From positions 1 through 61,963 of the IMG/VR virus record IMGVR_UViG_3300050331_000115: a stretch of DNA of 61,963 bases; one strand, given 5' to 3'. Under the pieces are notes generated by a model. The model searched no databases. It saw only the letters and a list, made by a program, of their open reading frames with translations, and was not told the DNA's origin. The position numbers and the translations under genes were made by a program. Numbering within the stretch: position 1 is the stretch's first letter; each line of letters begins with the position of its first letter. Below, piece by piece: positions 1,206-55,752 of this stretch. The stretch comes from a virus. Taxonomy: Duplodnaviria; Caudoviricetes.

Positions 1206-1429
1206 GCATTCGCTTGCGAACGGTCGGCGGCGTTCGTGTCGCGCTCTGCGCCTACGAGACGGATGAGGCGGCAGGCGACACCTATCTGGACGACGCTGAC
1301 CACTACGCACTCGCCGCTAAGTTTCGGAGGGACTGGTGGCAGCAACGCAACGATTTCACATACCCAACGGAATGGGCAGTCATGGATACACAAAAGCTGC
1401 GAGACGCCACCACAAGGACCGATCTATGA
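1202..1429 (+). CDS. Small hypothetical protein between Pnk and ligase
   Basis: 75 aa, ATGA-coupled on both sides, SD GGAGAGG. Confidence 0.65.
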   Translation: MSIRLRTVGGVRVALCAYETDEAAGDTYLDDADHYALAAKFRRDWWQQRNDFTYPTEWAVMDTQKLRDATTRTDL

Positions 1430-2538
1430 CCTACCCCACCATCCACCACATCGACGACGTCCTGCCGCACATCGCCGGCCGCTCCGAGTTCGTCGTCGCC
1501 GAGCGCGACGGCTACACGGCGATCGACTACAACTTCGCGCTCGCCGACACGTTTGACGATCCAATGCGTCTCGAGTGCCGCGGGATAAAGTTCGACGCCG
1601 ACGGCAAGATCCTCGCGCGCCCGTTCCAGAAGTTCTTCAACATCGGCGAGCGGGAGGACACCCAGCCGCACCTGCTCGACTTCTCGCAGCCCCACGCCGT
1701 CACCTAGAAGCTCGACGGGTCGATGATCCACCCGGCAATCGTCAACGACGAGGTCGTGCTCATGACCCGCATGGGACGCACGGACGTCGCGATCAAGGCA
1801 GAGCGGCATCTCAACGAAGCGCTGCGCCGCGAGTGCCGGGTCGAGATTGAGGCCAACGTGACGCCGATCTTCGAGTTTACGGCGCCAGACAATCGAATCG
1901 TTGTGCGCTACGAACAGTCTGGCCTATCGCTTTTGGCGCTTCGCTGGAACAAGACGGGTGACTACCTCGACCGCGAGTACGCGGCAGCCGTAGCTCGCGC
2001 CATGGGCCTACCCCTCGTCACCCACCACCCATCCGACTGGAACAGCGGACAGGCGTTCCTCGACTACGCGCGCGCCGTCACCGGCCGCGAGGGCTTCGTG
2101 GTGCGCTTCGACAGCGGCCTGTGGGTCAAGGCGAAGGGCGAGGACTACGTGCTCAAGCACAAGGCCAAGGACTCAATCCTGCAGGAGAAGAACGTCCTGG
2201 CGCTCATCATCCGCGGCGAGCTCGACGACGTCCTGCCGCTGCTCGACGAGAGCGACCGTGAACACGTGGAGGCGTACCGCGACGATGTCAACGAAGGCAT
2301 GGCTGCAGCCGCAATAGGCGTATCGGGCATCGTCACTGCCGGCCAGCACCTCGACCAGAAGTCGTTCGCAACCGAGCATATCGCCAAGTGCGCTCCGGCT
2401 TACCGCCATCTCGCGTTCATGGTCCGCGCAGGTACGCCGGCACTCGACGCCGTGCGCAGCACAATAGAGAAGAACCTGGGGAGCCAGTCAGCGGTCGACG
2501 CCGCCCGCCACCTACACGGGGCGCAATGGTCGCTATAA
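1426..2538 (+). pseudogene. T4 Rnl1-like RNA ligase interrupted by in-frame TAG at 1705-1707
   Basis: ECRGIKF, RPFQKFFNIGE, *KLDGS, FEF, EGFVV and KAK in one frame; 370 codons if read through. Confidence 0.85.
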
Positions 2539-2555
2539 GCGTTCCGCAATTCCGT

Positions 2556-2587
2556 TATAACGGCCCGCCTCGCGCGGGCCTTGTTAT
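2556..2587. terminator. Probable bidirectional terminator
   Basis: GGCCCGC/GCGGGCC stem between convergent genes. Confidence 0.55.
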
Positions 2588-2988
2588 GACTGCAGGAACT
2601 CGACGCACTCACGGTACGCAGCAGCAAACCCGTCGATGGTTGTCTCGCCGATAATCTCGGCGCCGTGCGGCCAGTCTGTGTACGAGAAATCTATGACAGG
2701 GTCGTCCAGCAACGGCTCAGCGGGCATAGACAGGAACACCGACGAAGGCCCGGCGTACCGCTTCTCGTGGATCATGAAATAGATGTTCGATCGCGGGTCC
2801 GTGTCCGCTTCGACGGCCAAGCCAATGGTGCCATCCGGCTCGACGCTCGCGAACACGTTGCTGGTTGGGGACAACACCAAGCACGACTTGGTGCCCCTAG
2901 CTGGATTCTCGACAGGATCCGCGATGGCCTGCGCCGCGGCTGGGGCGGCTGGCAACAAGAGGCACATGACGGCCAAGAGCGTGCGCAT
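2584..2988 (-). CDS. Secreted/periplasmic hypothetical protein
   Basis: Signal peptide MRTLLAVMCLLLPAAPAAA. Confidence 0.65.
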   Translation of the reverse strand: MRTLLAVMCLLLPAAPAAAQAIADPVENPARGTKSCLVLSPTSNVFASVEPDGTIGLAVEADTDPRSNIYFMIHEKRYAGPSSVFLSMPAEPLLDDPVIDFSYTDWPHGAEIIGETTIDGFAAAYRECVEFLQS

Positions 2989-3031
2989 GGGCGGACAATA
3001 GGGCGCCGTCGGCGACTTGGCAACCGGCCGC

Positions 3032-4056: not shown

Positions 4057-4665
4057 TCAGTGCCTCCTCGTCTCGATGAGCAACCAATAGGTCGCAAGGT
4101 ATTCCGCCTTCGCCCGCTCCGGCGCCCAGAACTGCAACGTGACGCCTAGGGGTTCCAATCCAGGCCACCCGCCCTCGTAGTTGCCGGGGGCCATGTTTTG
4201 GGCGCGCTCGTCGGACAGAATGCTGTTGTCCGCGAATACGACAATCTCCGGCAGAAGCGGCGATAGCCCGAACTTCTCCGCGATCACCGCCCACAGCCGC
4301 TGCTCGGCCTCTTTGTAGCCGGGCAAGAACGGCTTCACCGGCCGCGGCACGTCGACGAGATATGCCTCCATGTCGTCGTGGTGCAGGGCGTGTTCCGCCT
4401 CCAGCGTCATCCCCTGTTCGATGAACCATCGAGCCATGAGAGTGGCGTGCTCTGCCACGCTATGGAAGCGCAAGCAGTGGCCCGCATAGCGGCACTGCAT
4501 CGACAGGCTGTGGGCGATGTCGTTGATGTCGACCTCGTCGGCGCGCGGGTCCATCGGCCAGAACTGTCGCCCCGATGCGACCTGCATGAAATTGCCGATG
4601 CGGGTGGCGGGAGGCGGCGCGCCGCCCACCCATGTATTGTTGCGGAGTACGGGCTGGGAGGTCAT
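4057..4665 (-). CDS. HD-domain deoxynucleotide phosphohydrolase (YfbR/YfdR/DatZ-like)
   Basis: DIAHSLSMQCRYAGH, SVAEH, LHHDDMEAYLVDVPRPVK. Confidence 0.85.
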   Translation of the reverse strand: MTSQPVLRNNTWVGGAPPPATRIGNFMQVASGRQFWPMDPRADEVDINDIAHSLSMQCRYAGHCLRFHSVAEHATLMARWFIEQGMTLEAEHALHHDDMEAYLVDVPRPVKPFLPGYKEAEQRLWAVIAEKFGLSPLLPEIVVFADNSILSDERAQNMAPGNYEGGWPGLEPLGVTLQFWAPERAKAEYLATYWLLIETRRH

Positions 4666-4700
4666 CGTGGTGGGCTCCTCTGTGGTGGTGGTAGGTGTAT

Positions 4701-20260: not shown

Positions 20261-20707
20261 CTACGCCTTGGCCGTCCTGGTGGGCACCCCGTCGAACTGG
20301 ATGTCGAGCTCGGCAGTGACCTTCGAGCCCCTGTCGCCCTGGTTGTTGACCGACACGAGATAGGCGGGGCCGGATTCGTACTCGGTGTCGCCGCTTTCGG
20401 CGTTAACGTGCTGGATGCGGACGTTCTTCGTGGCGCCGCCGTACCACCAATCGAGGATATTCTCGTGGCTCTCTTTCGACCAGACGCCGGTGCCGGAGAT
20501 GGTCACCTCGGACGACTGCACGGCACGCTCCACGGCCGCGGGCAAGGACTCATCGTCGCAATCCGGCACTTCCGTAGTGCTCATGTTGTGCGAACGGTTG
20601 ATGCCGCGGCCGGTGAGCCCGCACACGCGGGCGTAGGTGCCGGACGAGGCGACCCATTCGACTTCGAGGACGAACTTGTCAAAAGTGGCGGTAGTAGCCC
20701 GAGCCAT
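20261..20707 (-). CDS. Major tail tube protein
   Basis: 148 aa, VCGLT, EVPDCDD, ISGTGV. Confidence 0.85.
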   Translation of the reverse strand: MARATTATFDKFVLEVEWVASSGTYARVCGLTGRGINRSHNMSTTEVPDCDDESLPAAVERAVQSSEVTISGTGVWSKESHENILDWWYGGATKNVRIQHVNAESGDTEYESGPAYLVSVNNQGDRGSKVTAELDIQFDGVPTRTAKA

Positions 20708-20725
20708 GCGGGGTTCTCCTGTGAG

Positions 20726-20750
20726 AAAAACCCCGCTCGATGGCGGGGCT
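20726..20750 (-). terminator. Intrinsic terminator
   Basis: CCCCGC/GCGGGG stem plus T tract on minus strand. Confidence 0.7.
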
Positions 20751-20772
20751 TATGTGGTGGGGATGGTGGTGG

Positions 20773-20979
20773 TTACTTGCGCTTACGGCGCTTACGCGGT
20801 GCCGTGTCGGACGTCATGGTGACGCGCGTTGCGGCGCCCGCCGCCACCGCGGCATCCACAAAGTCGTGGACACGCGATTGCGGTTCCGTGCTGGGCTTGG
20901 CATTGAATGAGAAGCGAGACCTAGGTCTCGACCAGTTGAATTCTCGATGGAAGACCGCCCATCCCATCTGCTCATCCAT
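20773..20979 (-). CDS. Small virion-module protein
   Basis: Overlaps upstream stop; basic C-terminus. Confidence 0.6.
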   Translation of the reverse strand: MDEQMGWAVFHREFNWSRPRSRFSFNAKPSTEPQSRVHDFVDAAVAAGAATRVTMTSDTAPRKRRKRK

Positions 20980-35364: not shown

Positions 35365-35416
35365 AGTGGACTCCTCTGGTGGTGGTGTTGCGCGCCGTGG
35401 TGCGGCGCCGTGATGG

Positions 35417-35788: not shown

Positions 35789-35817
35789 TTCCGACTCCTT
35801 GTGGTGGCGCGGTGCGA

Positions 35818-35947: not shown

Positions 35948-36196
35948 ATGGACATTAGGGCAAAGATTGAAGCGCGCATCGCCGCCGAGCATGCCAAGCC
36001 CGACACCCACGTTGGAGTCGTTACGTTCACGGATGGCACGGATTGGCGCCAGCCGTGCAAGAGCGCTGCAGCGGCGGAAAATTTCGTTAGCAGCTATCGC
36101 CGCTTGATTGGCACGCATGAATTCATCAGCCGCAAGACTGGCCAAAAAATCCGCGTCGCTAGCGTCGCTGTGGTGGCGCTGGCAATCGGCGACTAA
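35948..36196 (+). CDS. Small hypothetical protein
   Basis: SD GAGGAG. Confidence 0.7.
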   Translation: MDIRAKIEARIAAEHAKPDTHVGVVTFTDGTDWRQPCKSAAAAENFVSSYRRLIGTHEFISRKTGQKIRVASVAVVALAIGD

Positions 36197-36227
36197 CCAC
36201 CACCACCACAAAAAAGGAACATCGCAG

Positions 36228-36575
36228 ATGGAACGCAAGACATGCACCGGCGAGAGATATACCGGCGAATGGCAATCGCTTTCGGCTCTGCCAAAGTGGC
36301 ACGGCAAGTTTGGCCACCTGAATGCCTATCGTCTTGACCACGAAGACCCGTGCACTGGGTTCGGCCGGCACGATCGTGTGGTTGCGTTCGTTCCAGACGC
36401 GGAGGGTCTTTATTGCCGCGTTGACCACGTCTGGAGTCTCGGAATGCCCACCGAACGCCAGATTTTGGCAGTCGCGAAGCATGACAACGGCACGCGCGGC
36501 AAGTGGCGCCTAGACCGAATTGAGCCGTGGGACAACGGCAAGTCTACCGACTGCCATTTTGTGCGCGTGACATGA
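36228..36575 (+). CDS. Hypothetical protein
   Basis: (CCA)4 plus AAGGA SD. Confidence 0.65.
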   Translation: MERKTCTGERYTGEWQSLSALPKWHGKFGHLNAYRLDHEDPCTGFGRHDRVVAFVPDAEGLYCRVDHVWSLGMPTERQILAVAKHDNGTRGKWRLDRIEPWDNGKSTDCHFVRVT

Positions 36576-36673
36576 AAACCGAGCGGCCGCAGGGCACGGC
36601 CGCTCCCTTGCATGCCCACCACCACCACCACAGCCGCGCAAGCGGCGCCACCACCACCACAAGGAGTCTTGAT

Positions 36674-36919
36674 ATGCAAACGGAATTGGACATGTCGCGC
36701 TTGCCGCTCGGGCTGCGGCACGACTCATATTTCGAGAGAACCGGAAAGCTCGGGCCGAAGATCGACGTCTATTTTGTGACGGACGAACGGCCGCTTTCGC
36801 TCACCTATAAGCATTCGACAAACTGGCACAAGACGTGCCGAGAGGCGATCGCCGCGGCCGCGCGGCACTATGGATTGCCGCGCCATACCTTGCGCGCATA
36901 TTTCTACCGGGGGCGCTGA
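36674..36919 (+). CDS. Small hypothetical protein
   Basis: CCA tracts plus AAGGAG SD. Confidence 0.65.
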   Translation: MQTELDMSRLPLGLRHDSYFERTGKLGPKIDVYFVTDERPLSLTYKHSTNWHKTCREAIAAAARHYGLPRHTLRAYFYRGR

Positions 36920-37125: not shown

Positions 37126-37207
37126 CCGCGGCGCCCTATCAGCGGCGCCCTATCAGGCGCCGTCAATAGAACGCCACCACCCACCACGCCACCACGGAGT
37201 CCAGCAA

Positions 37208-37537
37208 ATGAACGTCTACATGTACGCGGCCGCGCTCTATTGCGCCGATTGCGGCGAGTCCATCCGCCAAACGCTTGACCGTGAAGGCAAGCGGCCGGCC
37301 GATCCTGGCGACGAGTCCAGCTATGACTCGGACCAATATCCCAAAGGTCCGTTCGGCGATGGCGGCGGCGAGTCGGACTCGCCTTGCCACTGCGGCGCAT
37401 GCGGCCGCTTTCTCGAGAATCCGTTGACGCCTGATGGCGTCGACTATGTGCGCGACGCGATCGCAAGCGGCGATGGCGCGCCGGATGTTCTGGCCACCTG
37501 GCGCGCGTTCTATGGCGCCGAGATTGAGCACGCTTGA
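37208..37537 (+). CDS. Acidic protein with two CxxC motifs
   Basis: YCADCG...HCGACG; CCA tract plus GGAG SD. Confidence 0.7.
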   Translation: MNVYMYAAALYCADCGESIRQTLDREGKRPADPGDESSYDSDQYPKGPFGDGGGESDSPCHCGACGRFLENPLTPDGVDYVRDAIASGDGAPDVLATWRAFYGAEIEHA

Positions 37538-37718
37538 ACCAATATCGCGGCGCCGCGGGCCGGCGCCGTTCCTATTGGCTCAACCTGGCAAGAGGAGGGA
37601 CGTTGACTAGCACAAGCGGCCGCGCATGCAAGGCGGTCGGATCTACCGGGCGCCACGAGTCCAAAGCGTGGCGCCCGTCCCACGCCACCACAAGCCTAAC
37701 CACCACAAGGAGTCCACT

Positions 37719-37952
37719 ATGCCCACAATCGCCGAATTCCTGGCCGGCCATCCGCTCGCCTATCGTTCATTCGATGGCGTCGCCGTGGTCGCCACCTATC
37801 ACAAGGCCGGCCGCGACGCGATCGGCCACCTGGCCATCTGTGACGCGCAAGGCCGGCGCCTGGCGTCGCCAGTAATGGGCGAACATGGCGCGGCGCAATT
37901 CCATGGCAGCATTGCCGCGGATCCGGCCGCGCGGCCGCTCGAGCTCGCCTAG
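37719..37952 (+). CDS. Small hypothetical protein
   Basis: CCACCACAAGGAG SD. Confidence 0.65.
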   Translation: MPTIAEFLAGHPLAYRSFDGVAVVATYHKAGRDAIGHLAICDAQGRRLASPVMGEHGAAQFHGSIAADPAARPLELA

Positions 37953-38060: not shown

Positions 38061-38233
38061 AATTTTTCTGTGTCGCAGAATCTCAAAACAGCTTTGACAC
38101 TTAAAATTTCTCTGTGTCGAAAAATCTCAAAACAGCTTCGACACTTGAATTTTTCGCTTCGACTGTGTATCAAAACCCCTTCGACACTTGAAATTTTCTG
38201 TGTCGCAAAATCTCAAAAGAGCTTCGACACTTG
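38061..38233. repeat. Four tandem ~43-bp AT-rich repeats
   Basis: Unit about AATTTTCTGTGTCGCAAAATCTCAAAACAGCTTCGACACTTG; third copy diverged. Confidence 0.9.
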
Positions 38234-38248
38234 AGTTTTACACGTCCT

Positions 38249-39002: not shown

Positions 39003-39404
39003 TCACCACCCGTAGTCCTTCCCGTCGTTCACGTCGCGGAAGTTGACGCTTTCCGAGTAGTAGCCATTACTCGATCCGTACCAGCGGATGTCGACGTAAC
39101 CCTTGCCGGTGGCGAGCTTGTAGAACGTCCATGTCGAGGATTCGTCGGTGTACTCATGGTCACCATACTTTTCGGTCTTCGGACTCTCCGTGTCGCTCGA
39201 CTCCTCGGCCACCAGTACCGGCGAGCCGATAAGGTCAGCGAGGTCGCCGTTGATGTCCTCGATCGATACGCTCTCGCAGCAATCCTGCGAATGGTACATC
39301 AAGTATTCGCCGCCGTCGGCGGTCTTGAACCTGATCTCGTCCTTCACGTCGTTCACTTCGACGGCGGTCAACGTCTTGCCGATCAGCGTCTCGAACTTTG
39401 CCAT
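39003..39404 (-). CDS. Conserved phage hypothetical protein
   Basis: HSQDCCESV...WTFYKL...[11 protein letters not shown]. Confidence 0.75.
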
Positions 39405-39506
39405 TTGTGGTGCTCCGTGGTGGTGTGGCGGGCTACCCACCCATCCCACCAGCGTTAACACCTGTTCGTCAAGTATGCGCATACATGCGCCCCACACCAT
39501 GCGGCG

Positions 39507-39716
39507 CTAATGCTGTGCCCGCTCCATGAATTCTAAAAGCCGACACGCAAGTTCGATGTACTTCGGCACCTCGCGTGCGCCCGTCAACCTGGGGCGCAAG
39601 CTCTCGCGGTTCCAGCCCAGCAACTCCGCCGCCTCGCGCTCGGAGAGCCGGTCCTTTCCGCGCATCCGGCCCATGCGTTTCATCCAGGCGTTCAGGTCTT
39701 CTTTGGTCATGGTCAT
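39507..39716 (-). CDS. Small HTH DNA-binding protein (Aca-like repressor candidate)
   Basis: LSEREAAELLGWNRESL...VPKYIELAC; operator in its own promoter. Confidence 0.75.
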   Translation of the reverse strand: MTMTKEDLNAWMKRMGRMRGKDRLSEREAAELLGWNRESLRPRLTGAREVPKYIELACRLLEFMERAQH

Positions 39717-39739
39717 GGTGGTGATTCCGTGTGGTGGTG

Positions 39740-39824
39740 TGGCCAATATATAGGCCAGAGAGGCGCGGGTGGCAATCGCATAAATAGGTGTTGACTCCAA
39801 CCTGCAGGCGCATATAGTCGCATT
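39740..39824. promoter_or_regulatory. Divergent promoters; leftward one carries the 18-bp operator
   Basis: TTGCCA-N17-TATATA (-), operator 39740-39757; TTGACT...TATAGT (+). Confidence 0.7.
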
Positions 39825-39857
39825 TATCCACCACCCACCACCACGAAGGAGTCCACC

Positions 39858-40100
39858 ATGACCATCGCTTTCGCCCCATACTGGCGCGGTCTGTCCGACG
39901 ACTACCTCGACCACGCCGGCCGCGCGATCCGCGCGCACTGCTACAACGATGCCATCGACAGCCTGAAGCGCGCCCTGAGCTGCGCCAATCGCGCCAAGGA
40001 TCTCAACCGCGCGGGCCGGTGCTGTGCTGCCATTCGCCGCCTGCAGTGGCTCATGTCGAAGATCCCTGCGGCACCGGCGCCGTGGCAGGAGGTGGCGTGA
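39858..40100 (+). CDS. Hypothetical protein
   Basis: CCA tract plus AAGGAG SD. Confidence 0.65.
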   Translation: MTIAFAPYWRGLSDDYLDHAGRAIRAHCYNDAIDSLKRALSCANRAKDLNRAGRCCAAIRRLQWLMSKIPAAPAPWQEVA

Positions 40101-45207: not shown

Positions 45208-45848
45208 GCTGCTTGCTCCAGATTGTCGTTCGCCGCAACCACTTGCGTGGTGGCGGGCACGTGGTCCTTCCAGTCGAACCACTGGATTGCCGGCCGGCCC
45301 TCGTGCCGCTCATCCCAGACGAACCACGCGTGGCAGACGGCCGAGCCGGCTTTCGGCCCATCCCATCCATGGCGGTGCATCATGGGCAGGCGCCGACTGG
45401 AGACATGAACGCGCGCCAGCGACCCGTGCTCGAACCAGAACTGGCGCTTCCCTCCCTCGAGGAACGCCAGGCGCAGGAGCATAGCGACATAGCCGCACTC
45501 CATGAGCGCGCGGTCGACGAACTCCTTGGCGAGTTTGAACGGCGGGTTGGTGATGACGCCCTCGACGTTTGATGGATGTCGACCGTCGCGCACGAAGTCC
45601 AGGCCGCTCATGCTGTCGGGGCACCCGCGGTCCACGAGGTCGGTGGCCTCGACGTTCCACCCTGCTGCGCGCAGCGGCAGGACAATCGCGCCGTCGCCAC
45701 ATGCCGGCTCCCAGATCGTGCCGCGCGGCAACCACTTCGACTCAATGGCGAGCAGCGCATGCACCGCCTCCGGTGGGGTGGCATAGAAGTCGTCGCCGCG
45801 CTCGGCGTGCGTGTGCGTGCCGACGCCGGCCACCATCCTGCTACTCAT
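45204..45848 (-). CDS. Amino (N6-A/N4-C) DNA methyltransferase
   Basis: DFYATP, IWEPACGDG, ITNPPF; ends AANDNLEQAA. Confidence 0.85.
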   Translation of the reverse strand: MSSRMVAGVGTHTHAERGDDFYATPPEAVHALLAIESKWLPRGTIWEPACGDGAIVLPLRAAGWNVEATDLVDRGCPDSMSGLDFVRDGRHPSNVEGVITNPPFKLAKEFVDRALMECGYVAMLLRLAFLEGGKRQFWFEHGSLARVHVSSRRLPMMHRHGWDGPKAGSAVCHAWFVWDERHEGRPAIQWFDWKDHVPATTQVVAANDNLEQAA

Positions 45849-46500
45849 CCTCGCTTCTCCATTCCTTCTTGCCTTCATGTGCCACCACGACCGGCTCAAT
45901 CTTCTTCCCGCCGCGCGCGTCCAGCGACGCCAGCCATTTCTCGTCCAGCTTCCGCGCTGGTTTGTATGCGATCGCATAGTGCGCCTCGCAGTAGTGGCTA
46001 CGCTTGCGCTTCTTCGCGCCGCAGAAGGCTCGTCCGTGGCCGTCGATCGGCCACTGGCATCCTGTGCCGTTGTAGGACGGCTTCTGCCCAGGCAACGGTT
46101 GCCACACCGCCGGGTCGACCGGATCGGCGGGCACTTCCGGTGGGCCGCCACGACGCACCACAACCACCTGTTCCGAGATCCCGCGCATGTTGTTGCGCCA
46201 GGCAAAGTGCCGCAGCGCGGCCGGTGTGATGCCGAGTTCCTTGGCAGTCTCAGACGTCAGTTTGCCGTTGTCGTTCGCGGCCTGGATGTGCTCGGCGCGC
46301 TGCTCGTTGGTCATCCCGTACCAGCCGGTCTTTGGGCGGTTGGCGACGCCGGGGATCTGATGGCGGTAACAAAATCCATGAAGCGCGTTTGGTGTGATGC
46401 TGAAGGCCGCGGCGATCTCGGCCTTGGTGTGGCCGGCGTCACGGAGGTCGGTGACGGCAACGATGCGCGCCGCCGTGGTGAGTTTGGGCCAGGGAGTCAA
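45841..46500 (-). CDS. GcrA-like transcription regulator
   Basis: Two HTH-like repeats plus CQWPI...FCG...YCEAHYAIAY. Confidence 0.75.
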   Translation of the reverse strand: MTPWPKLTTAARIVAVTDLRDAGHTKAEIAAAFSITPNALHGFCYRHQIPGVANRPKTGWYGMTNEQRAEHIQAANDNGKLTSETAKELGITPAALRHFAWRNNMRGISEQVVVVRRGGPPEVPADPVDPAVWQPLPGQKPSYNGTGCQWPIDGHGRAFCGAKKRKRSHYCEAHYAIAYKPARKLDEKWLASLDARGGKKIEPVVVAHEGKKEWRSEDE

Positions 46501-46685
46501 CGCCCCGCCTCAATCAAATACGCACCGACGATGCGACGCACGAAGCCAACCGGCGTCTCGGTCGCTGACTGGCGCAGTGAGACCGTGGCGGCGACCATGG
46601 AGATGGCGCGCTCGTCGATGAATCGGCGGGGCGCCGCCGTAGTGGGCACGACTGCCGCCGGGGCGGCCGTTGCCTCCCCGCTCAT
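46497..46685 (-). CDS. Small hypothetical protein
   Basis: Coupled on both sides. Confidence 0.5.
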   Translation of the reverse strand: MSGEATAAPAAVVPTTAAPRRFIDERAISMVAATVSLRQSATETPVGFVRRIVGAYLIEAGR

Positions 46686-46858
46686 TCTGCACCTGCCTGC
46701 TCGGCCTCGTCGGCGAGCATGGCAAGGTTTGTCGCCTTGTCGAGTTCTTCGCGGGCCGCTCGCGCATCGGTGGGCAGCAGTTCTCGCCACCTGGCGAGGT
46801 GCTGCTTGCCGCGAGCGCGGAGTTCTTCGGGTGTGGCGTGGTGGTGGGTGGTGTTCAT
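46682..46858 (-). CDS. Small hypothetical protein
   Basis: CCA tract plus AGGA SD. Confidence 0.55.
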   Translation of the reverse strand: MNTTHHHATPEELRARGKQHLARWRELLPTDARAAREELDKATNLAMLADEAEQAGAE

Positions 46859-46884
46859 TTCAGCGCATTCCTGTGGTGGTGGCG

Positions 46885-47640
46885 TTAGATGGCTACCTTG
46901 CCCTCGGTAACCTCGAAGCCGGGGATGACACGCAGGCCAGACCGGACGGCTTCTTCTGCCATCTGCTGCGCCAACGCCTCGAAGCGACTGGGGTCTCGGC
47001 CGTAGGCCCAGTCCATGGCCTGCTCGGCGTTCGTCATCCGGGCGCCCCACACCGTTCGCAGGCCGGTTCCAGTGGTGGCGCGCCTCTCCTGCCGGCTAGC
47101 GAAGCGGTCTGCTTCCTTGGCGAGAGCAAGTTGTTCTTCGGCGCGCTCGCGCTCATCGAGGTTGCCAGCCGACGCCCTGATTGCCGCCTCGGCTTCGGCG
47201 CGTAGCGCCTCTGCTTCCAATCTTGCGGCCTCTGCCTTTGCGGCGGCCTCGCGCTGTAACTTCGTGCGCCATGCGGCGAGCAGCGTACTGAGCGACTCCT
47301 TGCCGATCGCTACCTTGCCGCGCTTGGGCTGAACGTATGGGTTCCAGAGTTGCTGGACGGCAGCGGCGGCCTCGTCGTGCGGGCGCTTCTCTTCGACGCG
47401 CAAGGCGTCGGCTCGCTTGCCGGCATCGTGCAGACTGTCATAGAGTTTGGTCAACGCCTCGGCCGCCTCGGGGCTGTCGATGGCATTGCCATCTGCCCAG
47501 TGCCTGGCCTCATCATAGAGGTCGTCGATCTCCTGGCGGACCAAGAAGGCTTCGTCATCGATGGGCGGCCCGCCATTGTGCCCCGCGAATGCGTCGGGCG
47601 TGGGTGCGTCGGCGGGTGTGGTGTCTGCGGTGGTGGTCAT
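46885..47640 (-). CDS. Coiled-coil recombination-module protein
   Basis: GHNGGP, helical, ends IPGFEV. Confidence 0.7.
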   Translation of the reverse strand: MTTTADTTPADAPTPDAFAGHNGGPPIDDEAFLVRQEIDDLYDEARHWADGNAIDSPEAAEALTKLYDSLHDAGKRADALRVEEKRPHDEAAAAVQQLWNPYVQPKRGKVAIGKESLSTLLAAWRTKLQREAAAKAEAARLEAEALRAEAEAAIRASAGNLDERERAEEQLALAKEADRFASRQERRATTGTGLRTVWGARMTNAEQAMDWAYGRDPSRFEALAQQMAEEAVRSGLRVIPGFEVTEGKVAI

Positions 47641-47888
47641 AGCCCGAGCTCCAGTTCGTGGGATTCGCGGGTGTCGGAGAGTTCAGTTTCCAGCGAGTCG
47701 ACCCTCTCGCGCAGCGCCTCGATCTCGGCGAAGGCGCAGTAGATCATCTTGTTGCCGGTGACATCCTGCCACCGCCCGCCATGCCGATAGACATGGCTCT
47801 CCGAGCGGGTCTGGACGTAGCGGTACTTCCCATCCTCGACTGACACGTCGAGCAGGACTTCATTCGGGTCTTGTGGCGTGGTGGTCAT
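47637..47888 (-). CDS. Small hypothetical protein
   Basis: SD GAGGAG. Confidence 0.65.
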   Translation of the reverse strand: MTTTPQDPNEVLLDVSVEDGKYRYVQTRSESHVYRHGGRWQDVTGNKMIYCAFAEIEALRERVDSLETELSDTRESHELELGL

Positions 47889-47927: not shown

Positions 47928-49655
47928 TCAAAACGGAATTTCGTCCATTGCTGCCCAGTCTTCCTTGTTCATGTACGTGCGCAGTCCGCCGTCCCGCGGC
48001 AGCACCAGGTTCCCCTCGCGCTTCGGCGGAGGCACGTAGGACTCATCCTTGCTTTCGCCTGCCATGCTGTCGGTGACATTCCAGTAGCGCCCGTCCTTTT
48101 TCAGGACGACGTGGCTGGTGATCAGCAGTTCGCCGGCGCGATCGAGGAACTCGTCGACGGTCTTCGGGAACGGCGTCTTGCCGCCGTGCTTGGCCCACCA
48201 ACGGTTGGCCTTGCTATTGGCGTAGCTGCCTTTCGGGTGCTCGCCGTGCTGGGGACAAACCCATTCACTCGCCCGTACGCGCTCGGTCTCGTACGTCACC
48301 TTGACCGACGGCACGCCGCCTGGCTTGTCGTGGTAGGCGAAGGTGCGGCCGATGACGGGTTCCCACAGCGGCTCGTCGGTGGAGAGGATTGGGGCGACGT
48401 CGGCAGTGGTCGTGAACTTCTTTTCTTCGCTCGGCGGGAACTGGTAGCCGCAGCACGGGCAGACCATGACGGAAATATGCACGAGTTCGTCGCACCCACC
48501 ATCATCGCGCGGGCACTGCTTTATAGGAGGCTCTCCGTCACCATCTCCAGGTGCCTTTGGTCGGATGAGGTCGATTGGCCCAAACCGTCGAAGGTTCCCA
48601 CCATGGTCGAGCACGAGGCAGTCCTTCTTGCCGGGGAAGTTGCGCGTGCCGCGACCGAGGATCTGCACAAAGAGACCGGGAGACTTGGTGGCGCGGATGA
48701 CCGAGATCAGGTCCACGAACGGGAAGTTGGCGCCGGTGGTGATCATGTTCGCCGACGCGATTGACCATAACTTGCCTGCGCGAAAGTCCGACAGAATGCG
48801 ACGCTGATCTGCCTCAGACGTGCGGCTGGTGAGTGACTCGCACGTGCGGCCCTGAAGCCGAACTTCGTCGCGAACGTGGTCGGAGTGATCCTGCCCAGAA
48901 CAGAAGAAAAGCGCGGCGCGTCGATCTGCGCCCCACATGAGGGCCTCCCGAACTGCGGCCTCAGTGATCTCAGTCTTGTCCGCCGCGCGTGCCATCTGGC
49001 CTGGGACGAATTCTCCGCCGCGCGTGCCTACCCCCTTGAGGTCGATCGTGGTTTCGGTGTTCTTGTTGGACAGACGAGTCAGATACCCTCGATCGATTAG
49101 ATCGGTGATGCTAATCTCGTAGACGATGTCGTCGAACAGCGCGCCGTCACCATCGGTGAGCATGCCGGAGTCCATGCGGTACGCAGTGGCCGTCGTCCCA
49201 ACAATGCGACTGTCCGGGTTGGCTTTGCCGATGGCTGTAAAGAATTTCCCGTACTGGGTGTCCGCTTTGCGGCTGATGGCGTGGGCCTCGTCCACTATCA
49301 CGAGATCGACCTGCCCGAGGGCGGCGACTTTGTTGGCCACGCTCTGGATGCCACAGAACAGCACCTGCGCATTGCGGTCGCGGCGATTGAGGCCGGCGGA
49401 GTAAATTCCCGCTGGAGCGAACGGCGAGAGTCCGACGAACTCCTTGAAGTTCTGCTCGACCAAGGTTTTGCTATGAGTCACATTTAAGATACGCATATCG
49501 GGGTAATCGGCCAGCAGTTCCTCGATGATCTTGGCAATTACAAGGGCCTTGCCGCCGCCAGTCGGAAGCACGATCAGGCCATTGCCGCCACCGCCCGCCC
49601 AGTAGGCGTAGAGGGCGTCGATCGAGGCCCGCTGATAATCCCTAAGCTGCAGCAT
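47928..49655 (-). CDS. SF2 DEAH helicase with Zn finger (RadD/YejH-like)
   Basis: LRDYQ, PTGGGK, DEAH, TAT, QILGRGTR, Cys cluster. Confidence 0.93.
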   Translation of the reverse strand: MLQLRDYQRASIDALYAYWAGGGGNGLIVLPTGGGKALVIAKIIEELLADYPDMRILNVTHSKTLVEQNFKEFVGLSPFAPAGIYSAGLNRRDRNAQVLFCGIQSVANKVAALGQVDLVIVDEAHAISRKADTQYGKFFTAIGKANPDSRIVGTTATAYRMDSGMLTDGDGALFDDIVYEISITDLIDRGYLTRLSNKNTETTIDLKGVGTRGGEFVPGQMARAADKTEITEAAVREALMWGADRRAALFFCSGQDHSDHVRDEVRLQGRTCESLTSRTSEADQRRILSDFRAGKLWSIASANMITTGANFPFVDLISVIRATKSPGLFVQILGRGTRNFPGKKDCLVLDHGGNLRRFGPIDLIRPKAPGDGDGEPPIKQCPRDDGGCDELVHISVMVCPCCGYQFPPSEEKKFTTTADVAPILSTDEPLWEPVIGRTFAYHDKPGGVPSVKVTYETERVRASEWVCPQHGEHPKGSYANSKANRWWAKHGGKTPFPKTVDEFLDRAGELLITSHVVLKKDGRYWNVTDSMAGESKDESYVPPPKREGNLVLPRDGGLRTYMNKEDWAAMDEIPF

Positions 49656-49763
49656 TTAGACTCGTGTGGTGGCTGTGGTGGTCGGCTGGTTAGGCCGGTG
49701 GTGTGGTGTCGCATAAAGACGCATATGGTGAAAGCAGAATGCGCGACTTATGAACAATTTTCG

Positions 49764-51479: not shown

Positions 51480-51676
51480 AACACCCCCTCCGGAAACATC
51501 TCGATCGTCCGTTCGCACCGCTTCGGCTTCGGCTTGGGCAGCAGACCGATGGCAACATCGAGCGCCGACCTGATGTCCCCGGCCACCAGTCTGCCCAGCA
51601 CGTCGGCGTCGCCGGTCTTCGCCCACAAGTGCAGTGTTTCGAGGACTTCTCTGGCTTCGTCGCGGTTCATGGTCAC
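51476..51676 (-). CDS. Small hypothetical protein
   Basis: Coupled on both sides. Confidence 0.55.
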   Translation of the reverse strand: MTMNRDEAREVLETLHLWAKTGDADVLGRLVAGDIRSALDVAIGLLPKPKPKRCERTIEMFPEGVL

Positions 51677-52773
51677 ACCGCCACCCGGTACGAGCCCATG
51701 ACGCCGACCCAGTTGTCGTTGCCTGGAACAGTCATCCGCGAGAAGCTCACCGCGTCCTTGATGGCGAGATCCACGACCTCACCCGGCGCCGCAGCGAGCA
51801 TGTCGCTCAGTAACCCAGACTGGAACGCCAGCGACACCTCGGCGCCGTCGTACTCAGTGGGGACCTCGTCGACGGCGTCACGGCCGTCCTTGTCGGCAGC
51901 CTTTAGCGTCACCGCTCCGGTCGCCACATAGACACGCACCGGCTTGCCGGAGATGTCGGCAGTCACGATACTGACTCGACCAACTGCATCTGCGAACTCC
52001 GCCTTGTCGAGCCGCACCACCTTGTCGCAGCCTTGCGGGAGGCCGCGCTCGTACTGCAGGTACGGCTGCTCGATCAGTTTGGCCGTCAGCGCCGTGCCGT
52101 CGGCCGTCACGGAAATCATGGACTTGCCGACGCGCAGATCGACGGCACCCTTGGGCAGCATGCCGACGACGCGACCCGGCACGACGACGCCGGGCATGCC
52201 TGCCGCGTCTTCCGGCAGGTCGGTGTCGTGGATGGCCATGCGCGCACCGTCTGCGCCAACGGCGCGCAACTTGCCGTCGTGGGCGTGCAGGTAGACGCCC
52301 TCTAGGCACGGCCGCTGCGGGTCGCTGGCGGACGCTGCGAACGCCACGGGAGCGAACAGTGCCGCAAGGTCAGCGGTGAACGTGGCGTCGAACGTGGCGC
52401 CGGCTAGCGTCGGCATGCTCTTGCTGGGAACGGACGGCAGCTTGAACCGCGAGCGTCCGGCCTTGATGGTCAACGTTCCGGTGTCGGCGACGGAGCCCGG
52501 CTCCAACTCCAGCGACACGGTGTCGCCGGCCAGGCGCTTGACGATGTCGTATAGGTTGCGCGCCGGAACGCAGGCTGTCCCCTGTCCGTGGACAGTGGCC
52601 GGGACGGTAGCGGTGATCTCGATGTCGAGGTCGGTGCCGCGGGCGGTCAGCGCACCATCTGCCGCTGTCAGGACGACGTGGCTCAGGATGGGGATGTGAT
52701 GACGGGTCTCGACAACCTTGGCGATCTGCGATAGGGCTTTCGACAGTTCTGCGCGTTGGACTTCTGCGTGCAT
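51673..52773 (-). CDS. dnaN: DNA polymerase III beta sliding clamp homologue
   Basis: IPILSHV, GTDLDI, GRSRFKL, LEGVYL, KLIEQPY; about 366 aa. Confidence 0.9.
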   Translation of the reverse strand: MHAEVQRAELSKALSQIAKVVETRHHIPILSHVVLTAADGALTARGTDLDIEITATVPATVHGQGTACVPARNLYDIVKRLAGDTVSLELEPGSVADTGTLTIKAGRSRFKLPSVPSKSMPTLAGATFDATFTADLAALFAPVAFAASASDPQRPCLEGVYLHAHDGKLRAVGADGARMAIHDTDLPEDAAGMPGVVVPGRVVGMLPKGAVDLRVGKSMISVTADGTALTAKLIEQPYLQYERGLPQGCDKVVRLDKAEFADAVGRVSIVTADISGKPVRVYVATGAVTLKAADKDGRDAVDEVPTEYDGAEVSLAFQSGLLSDMLAAAPGEVVDLAIKDAVSFSRMTVPGNDNWVGVMGSYRVAV

Positions 52774-52873
52774 GAGCTCGCTCCGTGGTGGAGTGTTGGG
52801 CCGCAAGGCCCGTGGTGGTTAGGACGGCGAGCCTCTGTGGTGGTGGCTCGCCGTCGCCGTTTCTGGCGGTGGT

Positions 52874-53464
52874 TTACTTCTTGGCACCCCATGGCCGCTT
52901 CGGCGCTTCACCGGCAGCAGGCGCCGCCTTCTGGCCGTTGTCGTTCGCGGCGGCCCGGTTGCCGTTGGCCGCGGCGGTCGGACGCGGTGCAGCCTTAGCC
53001 GCCGGCACCTGGCCCTCGTCGGGGAAGTAGAACTTCTTGATCTCGTTCTTGGCCGGGTACGTCGGCACGCCGTTGGCGTCCTTCTCCTTGCTCGGCTTGC
53101 CCATGCCGATCTTCGCGGTGAACGACTTGAACATCAGGTCGTCGGTGTCGCTCACCGGGTCACTGATGCCCATGGCGCGGCAGAGCGCCGCGAACTGCGA
53201 CTGGCCGATGGTCTGCGCCTGTGCCGTGGGGTGCTCGAGGTTGAAGTAATCGAACACCTTGCGGCCCTTGTAGTCCTCCGGCTCGATCACCTGGTAGGTG
53301 ACCTTGACGCCGACCTTGCGTGTCCTTGGGCTGTCAGGGTCGGTGATCTTGACGTCGGCGGTCTCGACCTCGAGCACGTAGTCGCCATCGGGCAGGTTCT
53401 CGAAATCGGCGCGCTGCTCGGTGTCGTGTTCGGTGGGGTTGAAGGAAGTGCCAAGACTGGCCAT
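52874..53464 (-). CDS. DUF669-like single-stranded DNA-binding protein
   Basis: LPDGDY, YKGRKVFD, KNEIK, tail ending RPW with AAANDN. Confidence 0.8.
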   Translation of the reverse strand: MASLGTSFNPTEHDTEQRADFENLPDGDYVLEVETADVKITDPDSPRTRKVGVKVTYQVIEPEDYKGRKVFDYFNLEHPTAQAQTIGQSQFAALCRAMGISDPVSDTDDLMFKSFTAKIGMGKPSKEKDANGVPTYPAKNEIKKFYFPDEGQVPAAKAAPRPTAAANGNRAAANDNGQKAAPAAGEAPKRPWGAKK

Positions 53465-53490
53465 TGGGTATGCTCCTGGTGGTGTGGCGG

Positions 53491-54693
53491 TTAGGCGGCG
53501 ATGGTGAGCGCGGAGGCGGGGAAGCCATGGCTGTTGTGGCCGGGGCGCGCCCCGTCGAGAACAACGTTGTAGTTGTCGGCGACGCCGGTGGTGATGCGGC
53601 CGGTGACGGTGCCGGAGATGGTGACCTTGGCGCCGACGGGGATGGCGGGCCTGGCCGCCCTGACCAGCGACCACTCCCCCAAGAAGACGCGGCGAGCCTC
53701 GCCGTCGGACGCGACGATTTTGCCGCTCGCATCCACCGTGTATTCGCGCCCAGCTGTGTAGAAGCGCCCGCCCCACGACTCGCATCGCACCACGTTGCCA
53801 GGCTTGGCGTCTTCGATGCTCCACGCTGCTGTTGCTTCCGCAACAGCAGCCGGTTCCGGTTCGACCCACTCGGCGACGAGGTCTTCGTGCGGTGAACGGC
53901 TGTCGTTCTGCACCAGACCCGCGTCGCTGTAGTAGCCGATATCGAAACTATAAGAGGTCCACGGGTAGCCATCGTCCCACCCACAGTTCTCCATCGGCCC
54001 CACCTTGCGACCGTCGCGCGTCCGGTAGAACTTGCCGGCCTCGATGGTGAGGGGCGCAGGCGCGATGTCATCCTCGCCGACCCAGTAGCCGAAGCCATCA
54101 TCGACGCGCCTTCCGCAGGTGTGCGCCCAGTCGAGTTTCTTGTCGAACTTGATCGCGATGCCGAGCTTACCATCGCCTACAGAGGCGATGGTCGCAGGCG
54201 CGTCGGTGAAGTTGCCGGCGACCTCGCGCACCATGACGACACGGTCGCCGACCTTCGGCCGCCACGCCTTGGTGGCGCGCGCGGCGGGCAGCAGTTCCAT
54301 ACCCTCGGTGGTGAGCCACCAGCCGCTTCCCGGTGTGATTTTGGCCCCAGACGAAAGTCCGTCATGTCCGTCGCGCCAGGCGTCGAACTCAACGAGGGCC
54401 GTGTCGCCGTCGACGCAGCGTACAGTCCCGACCTCACCTTTGGGCGCGCCCTCTGTGGCCCGCACCCTGTCGCCGACCTTCGGTGTATAGGTGGGCTTGT
54501 CCTCCGCGGGGGCATCGCCGTCGTCGATCACATACAGGTCGCTCTTGAACTGCCACAGTTCCGCACCCTCTTGGGCGAGCGGCCCCAAGCCGTTGTACTT
54601 GACCAGCCGCTCGCCCTTCCGCTTGTCGACGATCACGCCTTCGTCGCCATCCTGATCGCGCACTCGTGCGCCAATTCCGTATTTGCCGCCCAT
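53491..54693 (-). CDS. Modular protein with repeated KVGDRV (SH3/KOW-like) units
   Basis: Repeated GARVR/KVGDRVR/KVGDRVV/VGAKV modules. Confidence 0.7.
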   Translation of the reverse strand: MGGKYGIGARVRDQDGDEGVIVDKRKGERLVKYNGLGPLAQEGAELWQFKSDLYVIDDGDAPAEDKPTYTPKVGDRVRATEGAPKGEVGTVRCVDGDTALVEFDAWRDGHDGLSSGAKITPGSGWWLTTEGMELLPAARATKAWRPKVGDRVVMVREVAGNFTDAPATIASVGDGKLGIAIKFDKKLDWAHTCGRRVDDGFGYWVGEDDIAPAPLTIEAGKFYRTRDGRKVGPMENCGWDDGYPWTSYSFDIGYYSDAGLVQNDSRSPHEDLVAEWVEPEPAAVAEATAAWSIEDAKPGNVVRCESWGGRFYTAGREYTVDASGKIVASDGEARRVFLGEWSLVRAARPAIPVGAKVTISGTVTGRITTGVADNYNVVLDGARPGHNSHGFPASALTIAA

Positions 54694-54727
54694 AGCGGTT
54701 TCTCCTCGTGGTGGTGGTGGTGGTGGG

Positions 54728-55501
54728 TTAGTCGCCGACGCCCGTGGGCGCCGGAAAGTGCTTGCTGAGCTCGGCGTAGCCGGCGCCCTTTTTGAAGACG
54801 ATCGAGGCCGGCATCGAGTACCTGTTACCCGCGATGAAGCCGGCGCGCTCCTCGAGGTGGACCTGGCGCTCGGCGCCGCCCTCCGCGTGAGTTACCTTCT
54901 TGTTGAAGCCGACCTCCTTCTCCTTGAGTGAGACGCGGTAGTTCATGAAGCCGATGATGTCGGCCTTCTCCTGCGCGAGCGCCGCGGCACGCTTCTGGAG
55001 CTTGATGCCGTATCGCGAGTACGGGTCGCTGGTCGGCGAGTCGAAGCGCATGATCTCCGGATGGGCGATCAGCACCACGGCAAGCCCGGCGGACTTCATG
55101 GCAGAGACAGCTTGGAAGAACTCGTTCCACTCGGCGTCTGCGGCAAGGTAGCCCTTGCCAAATCCGGGCTCCTCGATATTCGCCCAGCCGTTGCGCCGGC
55201 AGGCCGCCGCCCACACCAGCGGCTCGAGGCCGTCGAGGCTGTCGACGATCACGGTCTTGCGGTCGTGGTCGGTGGTCAGCAGGTCGCCGAAGACGTTGAG
55301 CAGATCGTCGAATGACTCAACGGTGCCGGGGGTGGCGAGTTCGACGTCCTCCGGTGTGCGCTCCCCATCAGTGGGCAGGTAGATGGGGTCCGGAAACTCC
55401 GCGGCCAGAGACGTCTTGCCGACCTTGCCGACGCCATAGAGCAGGACGACGGGCGGATTGCTCGACTTGCTCGAGCGCAGCGATGAAAGCGAAAGGGCCA
55501 T
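54728..55501 (-). CDS. Sak4-like AAA ATPase/recombinase
   Basis: YGVGKVGKTS, VDSLD, GFGKGY, LIAH, AGNRY. Confidence 0.88.
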   Translation of the reverse strand: MALSLSSLRSSKSSNPPVVLLYGVGKVGKTSLAAEFPDPIYLPTDGERTPEDVELATPGTVESFDDLLNVFGDLLTTDHDRKTVIVDSLDGLEPLVWAAACRRNGWANIEEPGFGKGYLAADAEWNEFFQAVSAMKSAGLAVVLIAHPEIMRFDSPTSDPYSRYGIKLQKRAAALAQEKADIIGFMNYRVSLKEKEVGFNKKVTHAEGGAERQVHLEERAGFIAGNRYSMPASIVFKKGAGYAELSKHFPAPTGVGD

Positions 55502-55707
55502 CAGAGATACCCCAGGACCGCGCCGACGGGGGCGGCGAGGACGCCGACCACGCGGATGATGAAGAACGCCGTAATCGGTTCTGCTGCGGCGCCGAAAATC
55601 TTGACGATGTTCAGAATCCAGCCGAGCCCTGCGGCGATCCACAGCAGGATGAGCGCGATGGCGAGGAAGCCGCCGACGTTGCTGTCGGACGTTGTACGAT
55701 ATGACAT
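55501..55707 (-). CDS. Small membrane protein
   Basis: GWILNIVKI...RVVGV...GAVLG. Confidence 0.7.
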   Translation of the reverse strand: MSYRTTSDSNVGGFLAIALILLWIAAGLGWILNIVKIFGAAAEPITAFFIIRVVGVLAAPVGAVLGYL

Positions 55708-55752
55708 TGGTAGTGTCTCCTTAGTGGTGGTAATCAGATGATGGTGGGTAGC

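Follow-up and report, generated by a model that had tools for sequence, protein, structure and literature searches.

Tails of CA dinucleotides at the 5' end of a messenger RNA (mRNA) strongly raise translation rates by serving as standby sites, with ribosomal protein S1 as the suspected reader, and their potency has been termed 'puzzling' by the authors who described it (Sterk et al. 2018, PMC5934652). ACA motifs directly upstream of the Shine-Dalgarno (SD) sequence also enhance translation (Yang et al. 2014, PMC3879156). A related arrangement comes from the Cluster K mycobacteriophages, in which the start-associated sequence (SAS) is a fixed 13-bp word, 5'-GGGATAGGAGCCC (Pope et al. 2011, PMC3203893). 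Here we describe (CCA)n tracts that adjoin the ribosome-binding sites of a tailed phage, IMG/VR record IMGVR_UViG_3300050331_000115, a complete provirus of 61,963 bp analysed over its full length and called the window below (CheckV completeness 98%, G+C content ~63%). The sequence occurs in one sequencing run, a sediment metagenome. About one fifth of the phage genes, mostly early ones, carry such a tract beside the ribosome-binding site.

In the portions of these papers on which we draw, the likeness to CA tails and ACA enhancers lies in a single-stranded, C/A-only stretch of mRNA just 5' of the SD sequence, of length-dependent character, at the site of S1 and the 30S platform and, in several cases, next to structured RNA. 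The published examples are engineered (CA)n tails or single host genes (yifK, dppA), whereas (CCA)n is used here lineage-wide, before many genes and not by the hosts. The repeat unit is CCA without ACA, so that the motif of Salmonella yifK and dppA is not reproduced, and unlike the enterobacterial cases the phage shows no evident GU-rich regulator of the GcvB type. With the SAS and ESAS elements, as far as the same portions describe them, the tracts share a short repeat in one orientation immediately upstream of starts (SAS overlapping or abutting an AGGAG core), a location in the non-structural part of the genome before different gene families, essential absence from the host and ATG starts (80 of 93 for SAS, 22 of 22 for the CCA tracts). 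About half of the SAS have upstream inverted repeats and several tracts here follow or flank hairpins; in both cases a translational function is proposed but unproven. However, the element here is not the 13-bp word but a variable C/A run of 7-19 nt beside an ordinary SD sequence, which at times follows that sequence or falls within the first codons; the phages belong to another lineage and their hosts to another phylum; and a CCA tract cannot pair with itself, a property that SAS does not have.

The gene set comprises 98 genes called with a simple codon-usage script and gap filling, an SD bonus being weighed in the choice of starts. The word CCACCACCA occurs 24 times in the window, compared with a mean of 0.49 and a highest count of 3 in 100 dinucleotide shuffles. 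Taken at their full extent, (CCA)-periodic tracts that reach 7 nt or more number 87, of which 19 reach 9 nt or more. The sense-strand interval from -40 to -1, which amounts to 3.2% of all strand-positions (3,920 of 123,926), holds 30 of the 87 (binomial p = 3e-23). Among the 19 longer tracts, 11 lie in this interval and four others within the opening 30 nt of a coding sequence, while gene bodies contain none. A tract of at least 7 nt is present within 40 nt of the start on the sense strand in 22 of the 98 genes and on the antisense strand in one, and only five of the 44 intergenic tracts, all short, point away from the downstream gene. The original prediction, which had placed (CCA)n tracts by the ribosome-binding sites of more than 20 genes on the mRNA-sense strand and expected positional enrichment near starts, is thus borne out; every coordinate that it listed holds (CCA)n on the strand it gave, including the six-repeat tract at 54708-54726. 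The Thr/His N-termini that it read (MTTTTNP, MTTTAD, MTTTPQ and MNTTHHH) were also recovered, as were a GCAA-loop hairpin between tracts (36616-36660) and a hairpin with CACCA in its loop (~35392-35408).

An unbiased count of hexamers between -40 and -1 ranked the three CCA forms above every SD hexamer (CACCAC, 50 observed versus 3.8 expected; CCACCA, 48 versus 4.0; ACCACC, 31 versus 2.7). This interval has 157 hexamers composed of four C and two A, and 129 of them are one of these three periodic forms, which represent 3 of the 15 possible arrangements. The tracts are ~67% C and contain no G; ACA is missing from their body and seen only at some 3' junctions, for example in CCACAAGGAG. Their 3' ends fall mostly at -12 to -16 relative to the ATG and abut GGAG, while some tracts fill the spacer between the SD sequence and the ATG or run on as ACC or CAC codons. 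Blocks of 15-25 nt that include the SD sequence and the spacer are nearly identical before non-homologous genes, and the ACCACCACAAGGAGTC block occurs three times before unrelated genes. The composite pattern CCACCAC-N0-5-GGAG-N3-11-ATG, which is independent of gene calls, has 13 matches in the window (~210 per Mb), and its backwards control has none. The tracts are thus a genuine and statistically overwhelming property of translation initiation regions, tied to one strand. As a separate observation, the commonest second codon across the genome is ACC (Thr; 19 of 98 genes), followed by ACT (7 genes); the C/A bias reaches just past the ATG in general.

The bacteria that these phages infect do not share this usage. 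Host and phage start regions were compared with one finder that does not depend on gene calls, the host genomes being Hyphomicrobiales proxies that may not be the actual host. A CCA hexamer no more than 25 nt 5' of the SD sequence is present in 12 of 55 start regions of the window and in 3 of 261 in 400 kb of Mesorhizobium chromosome (p = 8e-8). Within the genome of Agrobacterium pusense, a prophage that is syntenic with the window and encodes 26 homologous proteins (G004:C10, ~509-565 kb) carries the hexamer at 13 of its 37 start regions, whereas 280 kb of DNA from the bacterium itself have it at 3 of 159 (p = 2e-8). Per 100 kb, the window contains 30.7 tracts of 9 nt or more and the host sample 4.75. 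The composite pattern has 2-7 matches in each of four Hyphomicrobiales genomes of 4.8-8 Mb, and five of the seven in A. pusense are inside one prophage. Among 201 Hyphomicrobiales genomes, 151 contain at least one match, most have 0-3 and none has more than 13. An equal frequency in host leaders, which would have counted against the original prediction, is thus not seen.

Within the phage, the tracts mark genes that must initiate translation on their own. They are present at 21 of 58 genes preceded by a spacer of at least 15 nt and at 1 of 40 coupled genes. All 22 tract-bearing genes start with ATG, whereas the other 76 comprise 60 ATG, 12 GTG and 4 TTG starts. Uncoupled early and accessory genes, that is, those of the accessory and replication regions, carry a tract in 17 of 25 cases, versus 2 of 19 structural genes and none of the five in the repressor-integrase arm, so the trait is not phage-wide as had been claimed. 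Several tracts begin at the TAA of the upstream gene. Others follow or flank hairpins that lack a U-run (for example 36616-36660, 37640-37706 and 52785-52846), and some form nearly the entire leader behind a sigma70-like promoter and an operator-like palindrome. The tract at 39828 would make up most of its 5' untranslated region, because it begins ~7 nt after a sigma70-like promoter.

The window is related to Sinorhizobium phage 16-3 (Sinorhizobium/Rhizobium), whose major capsid protein is 68-69% identical. Capsid homologues are found in prophages of many Hyphomicrobiales, with the highest identities (77-78%) in Pseudaminobacter and Mesorhizobium, while a megablast search with window positions 33-41 kb returned no close DNA relative among named phages. 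Phage 16-3 has the same layout, for example ACCACCACCACtGAGGAGActtgaATG. Composite sites number six in AP-16-3 and nine in Rhizobium phage RHph_TM3_3_14B; RHph_Y3_1, Labrenzia phage vB_LagS-V1 and RHph_N1_10 have none. The survey of related phages suggested by the original prediction thus finds the layout shared by 16-3, AP-16-3, RHph_TM3_3_14B and the A. pusense prophage and missing from some relatives. The capsid orthologues of the three named phages are tract-bearing at their start regions, as is that of the window. Loci around 80 capsid homologues, which sample the structural module, contain only four composite sites in 1.54 Mb, and 38 of their 906 start regions have the CCA hexamer. In the early region, the exact composite is present in nine of 80 loci around homologues of the window's exonuclease, and C/A-only runs of at least 8 nt precede 20-60% of SD sequences in most, versus 3-5% in hosts, counts that are not independent because many of these loci are near-duplicates. 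A few relatives, locus L204 among them, are nearly devoid of C/A runs.

Orthologous start regions were compared for two genes of the replication operon. A CACCA-type tract is present at the DUF669 start in eight of nine genomes and a tract at the DnaN start in eight of nine, usually behind a conserved hairpin; the exact letters differ, but the CACCA core is nearly invariant. The proteins in this comparison are only 27-55% identical, and retention of a tract at such distances, with its letters differing, indicates selection. On this evidence, the C/A tract is a lineage trait under selection. Relatives of lower G+C content have tracts resembling ACCAACAC, which are still C/A-only. The Sak4-like and methyltransferase genes have a tract in 16-3 and none in the window, while the helicase gene has one in the window and none in 16-3; going by these sequences, a tract goes with genes that have an intergenic spacer rather than with a given gene family. 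Between 16-3 and AP-16-3, which are ~91% identical over 33.6 kb, exact-flank matching recovered 1 of 25 tract sites. The hairpin that lies between the upstream gene and the DnaN-like C/A tract (52792-52811; G/C-rich, no U-run) is kept in L244, L279, TM3_3_14B and the A. pusense prophage, and may act in processing, in stability or in attenuation.

Viral contigs without detectable homology to the window at the protein level (L133, L176, L162 and L126) have the layout as well, L133 at 9 of 23 start regions and L176 at 5 of 15. The scan that retrieved them yielded at least 120 stretches and speaks to recurrence only; the multi-site loci were picked by the pattern itself. The 400-amino-acid protein behind the longest tract of the window has no relatives among the viral contigs. 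That the tracts are functionless, a by-product of base composition or of shared spacer ancestry, is hard to credit on this evidence. Near-duplication among the related loci does inflate some of the counts across relatives, as such a reading would have it; against it stand the 24 matches of CCACCACCA against 0.49 expected, the strand and position statistics, the phage-host contrast inside the single A. pusense genome, the retention with sequence turnover at orthologous sites and the recurrence in contigs without protein homology.

A role at the DNA level is another possibility, one that we regard as improbable. The tracts could be gene-boundary linkers for homologous or microhomology recombination that shuffles accessory genes, possibly used by the Sak4-like annealase module that the phage encodes, or trinucleotide microsatellites spread by slippage. 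They do stand at gene boundaries, mostly in a mosaic accessory region whose genes have no 16-3 homologue, near-identical blocks of 15-25 nt flank unrelated genes, the repeat is perfectly periodic, and AAA_24 (Sak4-like) and DUF669 proteins are encoded nearby. However, a recombination linker has no need to abut the SD sequence (0-4 nt), to obey an mRNA-strand rule (22 versus 1), to occupy the spacer between SD and ATG or to avoid coupled genes, and a neutral microsatellite would not last, with changing sequence, at orthologous starts across 27-55% protein identity. Locus L335 bears on the same question. Between 521 and 3520 (+) it has five consecutive early-type genes, each preceded by a GCACCT...GGTGC hairpin, AAGTAACTTT, CGGAG, 9-10 nt and the ATG. 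This module (hairpin, TAACTTT, CGGAG) is, like the CCA tracts, lineage-specific and directly upstream of the start, but it is A/T-rich and unrelated in sequence; we take its core to resemble the epsilon enhancer of T7 gene 10. One of the five genes is an ArdA homologue (54% identity) that bears L335's own, different module, so the module does not travel with the cassette and a start module would belong to the phage lineage and not to the gene.

Folding predictions point to translation initiation. The predicted energy needed to open the region from -18 to +6 has a median of 5.9 kcal/mol in the 22 tract-bearing start regions, compared with 10.7 in the other 76 of the phage (p = 2e-5) and 10.8 in 260 host start regions (p = 6e-7). 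For the region from -11 to +12, folded within three different contexts of sequence, the predicted values are 4.8-6.2 versus 9.3-10.3 kcal/mol, with p between 1e-4 and 3e-6, so that the difference is robust to the region chosen. Tract-bearing start regions are thus predicted to be ~5 kcal/mol cheaper to open.

The proposed role of the tracts in translation initiation is well supported by their position, their conservation and the predicted structure. As to its form, we lean towards the reading that (CCA)n, lacking G and U and therefore structure, serves as a standby site or enhancer platform to which the 30S subunit binds. The initiation module would be ordered as (CCA)n, a purine-rich SD sequence (GGAG), a C/A-rich spacer, the ATG and often ACC codons, with the tracts as its 5' half. 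A C/A-only run cannot pair with itself by Watson-Crick or wobble pairs, which would leave the 15-30 nt upstream of the SD sequence single-stranded, and the spacer and first codons would often be held open likewise. Such an unstructured leader would matter in a genome of 63% G+C with strong intergenic hairpins. The tract would act as a standby or landing site because this segment is where the 30S platform and S1 contact the mRNA, and it would insulate the SD sequence and the AUG from neighbouring structure. Initiation would in this way be raised on genes that start de novo because they come first behind a promoter, after a hairpin or past a stop codon. The presence of tracts also in the SD-ATG spacer and in the first codons fits a role of composition and structure better than a single binding site of fixed register. 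The enhancer proposed at the outset agrees with the lower predicted opening energy, with the conservation at orthologous sites and with the published CA-tail and ACA work, whereas enhancement itself, with S1 or the 30S subunit as the reader, is what we infer.

Several points weigh against the platform. Part of the folding difference follows of itself from the few pairing partners that C/A-only flanks offer, and the energies are all predicted. The regularity of the tracts exceeds what avoidance of structure needs (129 of 157 hexamers periodic; near-identical blocks of 15-25 nt), and strict periodicity with recurring blocks hints at a specific reader or at spread via copying or slippage. In the hosts the device is hardly seen (3 of 261 start regions in one sample, 3 of 159 in the other), and a purely generic benefit leaves its use by phages only unexplained. 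The syntenic locus L204, whose exonuclease is 72% identical and whose G+C content is similar, has a C/A run of at least 8 nt at just 1 of 20 start regions. Lastly, the (CCA)n body lacks ACA, the motif defined in Salmonella.

Some of these points are what one would expect if the tracts were the recognition site of a dedicated trans-acting factor, be it an early protein of the phage or, on the host side, an RNA-binding protein or a GU-rich small RNA. We think this unlikely. The repeated CACCA by the SD sequence would then be read as a joint on-off switch for a regulon of early mRNAs, with T4 RegA/RegB and the mycobacteriophage SAS proposal as models. Strict periodicity (129 of 157 hexamers), the near-invariant CACCA core at orthologous sites, identical modules of 15-25 nt before unrelated genes and the restriction to early and accessory genes (17 of 25, versus 2 of 19 structural) all speak for such a reader, and the lack of the motif in host start regions and in one syntenic relative is as expected with a lineage-specific partner. 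The same question is left open, in the part of their paper used here, by the authors of the start-associated sequences (PMC3203893). On the other hand, a Pfam scan of 70 of the 98 proteins of the window found no RNA-binding domain, the remaining 28 being in the structural region, and many of the small proteins have no family. The tracts vary in length (7-19 nt) and place (before the SD sequence, after it or in codons), relatives have irregular C/A strings, and contigs without protein homology to the window share the layout. A complementary GU-rich RNA had been suggested as a partner; no GGU-rich transcript of this kind is evident within the phage, where there are only five short antisense intergenic tracts and Rfam gave 0 matches. 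A variant of the same idea, about which we are doubtful, is that the CACCA repeat by the SD sequence is a lineage-specific 'start code' for a dedicated partner (a small phage early protein or an exploited host factor) through which early mRNAs would reach ribosomes in preference to others or at a set time. The mycobacteriophage SAS, the L335 module and the (CCA)n tracts would then be independent inventions of a single strategy, by which temperate phages mark early accessory genes with a private initiation signature.

A further possibility, which we consider highly improbable, is that the tracts are C-rich, G-free loading segments for Rho (resembling Rho utilization, or rut, sites), some with nut-like hairpins, that impose polarity or timed antitermination in early operons. 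The rut site of lambda tR1 consists of two C-rich segments around the boxB hairpin, and Rho needs ~60-80 nt of free RNA. A tract is about two-thirds C with no G, and several flank hairpins without a U-run (36616-36660, 37640-37706 and 52785-52846 among them), much as at tR1. Yet most tracts are 7-19 nt long and lie in spacers of 26-45 nt from the stop codon, far below what Rho requires; those in the SD-ATG spacer or in codons are covered by ribosomes; and adjacency to the SD sequence is left unexplained.

Four narrower ideas were set aside. The link to the 3' ends of transfer RNA (tRNA) and transfer-messenger RNA (tmRNA) raised in the original prediction finds no support, as ARAGORN found 0 tRNA or tmRNA genes, Rfam gave 0 matches at gathering thresholds and the tracts are internal to mRNA leaders. 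A Chi-like signal does not fit, since the tracts are rarer in the host (4.75 versus 30.7 per 100 kb) and their orientation flips with each gene. A CA-motif aptamer for guanosine triphosphate needs at least six GCAACA-type or at least ten ACAACA-type perfect copies, according to the part used here of the published sequence model (Curtis & Liu 2014, PMC4156500), and the window has (CCA)2-6 only. Extended pairing with 16S ribosomal RNA (rRNA) seems unlikely: the only complementary 8-mer is predicted to lie in a helix and host genes do not use CCA tracts. The 3' tail of the 16S rRNA (...GGATCACCTCCTTT) has no complement to the tracts. The 8-mer, UGGUGGUG, is present in the 16S rRNA of both proxy hosts (L283, 1184-1191; L284) and is the perfect complement of CACCACCA; with its predicted pairing, the match is probably a coincidence.

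Table 1. Genome regions, tract counts by region and tract-bearing sites of the window (uncoupled genes with a tract are given as fractions).
Feature	Position	Strand	Details
PNKP-like gene and Rnl1-like RNA ligase	0.2-2.5 kb		Pfam
Lysis and HK97-type structural genes	~7.8-30 kb	-	Pfam
Accessory early region	33.7-40.5 kb		ArdA, VRR-NUC, DUF7448 and many small genes without known family; Pfam
Leftward replication operon	40.7-56 kb		PrimPol, two methylases, GcrA-like, helicase, exonuclease, DnaN, DUF669, Sak4-like AAA_24; Pfam
CI-like repressor-to-integrase arm	56-62 kb		Pfam
Tract count, left end	1-8.8 kb		2/9
Tract count, structural and lysis	8.8-33 kb		2/19
Tract count, accessory early	33.0-40.7 kb		11/14
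Tract count, replication operon	40.7-56 kb		6/11
Tract count, repressor-integrase arm	56-62 kb		0/5
PNKP-like gene (195-1205), start region	188-197	+	CCACCAC in SD-ATG spacer
Gene 1426-1707 (N-terminal piece of Rnl1-like RNA ligase), start region	1407-1428	+	CCACCAC abuts AAGGA
Gene 4057-4665, start region	4663-4692	-	11-nt tract before SD and 7-nt tract in SD-ATG spacer
Gene 20261-20707, leader	20705-20773	-	Tracts 20754-20760 and 20764-20773, then terminator-like hairpin and SD; outside the 22 tract genes
Major capsid gene (23635-24915), start region	24913-24975	-	Tract, hairpin, SD, ACCACCAC, ATG
21-codon open reading frame 30861-30926	30924-30947	-	ACCACCAC abuts GAGGAG; coupled to next gene, gene call uncertain
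47-amino-acid gene (34014-34157), start region	34155-34186	-	13-nt tract, then AGAGGAGTC
Gene 34272-34592, start region	34590-34634	-	8-nt and 15-nt tracts; 25-nt block 96% identical to 34162-34186
ArdA antirestriction gene (34684-35364), start region	35351-35387	-	11-nt tract before SD; continues in codons 2-5 (MTTTT)
Gene 35417-35788, start region	35786-35807	-	CCACCACAAGGAGTC; directly downstream of operator-like palindrome and promoter-like site
Gene 36228-36575, start region	36196-36230	+	14-nt tract starting at TAA of upstream gene
Gene 36674-36919, start region	36616-36676	+	16-nt and 13-nt tracts around GCCGC-GCAA-GCGGC hairpin, then AAGGAGTC
Gene 37208-37537, start region	37174-37210	+	Two tracts, then GGAGTC
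Gene 37719-37952, start region	37685-37721	+	Hairpin, then two tracts; ACCACCACAAGGAGTC is identical to the block at 36653-36668
DUF7448 gene (39003-39404), start region	39402-39425	-	CACCACCAC abuts GGAG; CACCACAA fills spacer to ATG
Gene 39507-39716, start region	39714-39739	-	Tracts either side of weak SD; adjoins operator-like palindrome 39740-39757
Gene 39858-40100, start region	39828-39860	+	17-nt C/A leader ~7 nt past sigma70-like promoter (39791-39818)
Gene 46682-46858, start region	46838-46882	-	10-nt tract before SD; continues in codons 3-7 (MNTTHHH)
Gene 46885-47640, N-terminal tract	47629-47640	-	MTTTAD
Gene 47637-47888, N-terminal tract	47878-47888	-	MTTTPQ
Helicase gene (47928-49655), leader	49653-49703	-	Three tracts; GGAG not clear
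DnaN-like sliding-clamp gene (51673-52773), leader	52771-52846	-	Tract, TAA, tract, hairpin, CCACCAC, GGAG
DUF669 gene (52874-53464), start region	53462-53484	-	CACCA-type tract
400-amino-acid gene (53491-54693), start region	54691-54726	-	Longest tract (19 nt, six CCA), from upstream TAA to GAGGAG
68-amino-acid gene (55501-55707), second of leftward early operon	55705-55731	-	ACCACCAC, then TAAGGAG

The regions that hold these sites (Table 1) contain several other elements. An 18-bp palindrome, TGGCCAATAKATAGGCCA, has four copies in the accessory early region (33897-33914, 35818-35835, 35901-35918 and 39740-39757), where it overlaps promoter-like hexamers at divergent gene pairs; a second repressor, in control of ArdA and the genes beside it, probably uses the copies as operators. 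A gene-free gap at 38061-38246 has four tandem, iteron-like A/T-rich repeats with a period of 43-44 nt and may be a replication origin or partition site. In most starts of the accessory region GANTC, the target of CcrM-type methylases, overlaps the SD sequence as GGAGTC (for example at 34162, 34597, 35369, 35793, 36664, 37197, 37710 and 39849). Of 130 GANTC sites, 13 are between -22 and -1 and 39 fall in the bins from 32 to 40 kb; the phage also encodes a GcrA-like protein (45841-46500) and two methylases, and a link of methylation to early expression is possible. To the left of the accessory genes, ~1.1 kb without a convincing gene (~32585-33700) has a long imperfect palindrome of G/C runs centred on CTATAG (~32800-32865), farther on has many GGCGC and CTAG repeats (33400-33700), and could be a cos, pac or other cis site. 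At the left end, the PNKP-like kinase/phosphatase gene adjoins the gene for an Rnl1-type RNA ligase (195-2538, +), an arrangement that resembles the T4-style tRNA repair pair; the ligase matches are spread over two open reading frames (1426-1707 and 1762-2538), by a possible frameshift, split gene or flaw in the gene call.

No description of the motif was found in the literature on 16-3, on rhizobiophages or on CCACCAC/Shine-Dalgarno motifs, the 16-3 genome paper (PMC2832519) lying outside that search; the hits inspected were for the most part primers that encode His tags. C/A enhancers and CA tails are known from few enterobacterial genes and from engineered constructs; here their counterpart is in natural use at genome scale, as a trait that spans 16-3-like temperate phages of Sinorhizobium, Rhizobium and Agrobacterium whose hosts are without it. 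If the platform reading is right, phage 16-3 in S. meliloti would offer a tractable system for the study of ribosome recruitment by C/A tracts in high-G+C bacteria, and the tracts would be a second, independent example of start-associated sequences. The signature would also improve the calling of start codons, flag the early regions of prophages in alphaproteobacteria and aid the design of strong ribosome-binding sites for high-G+C hosts.

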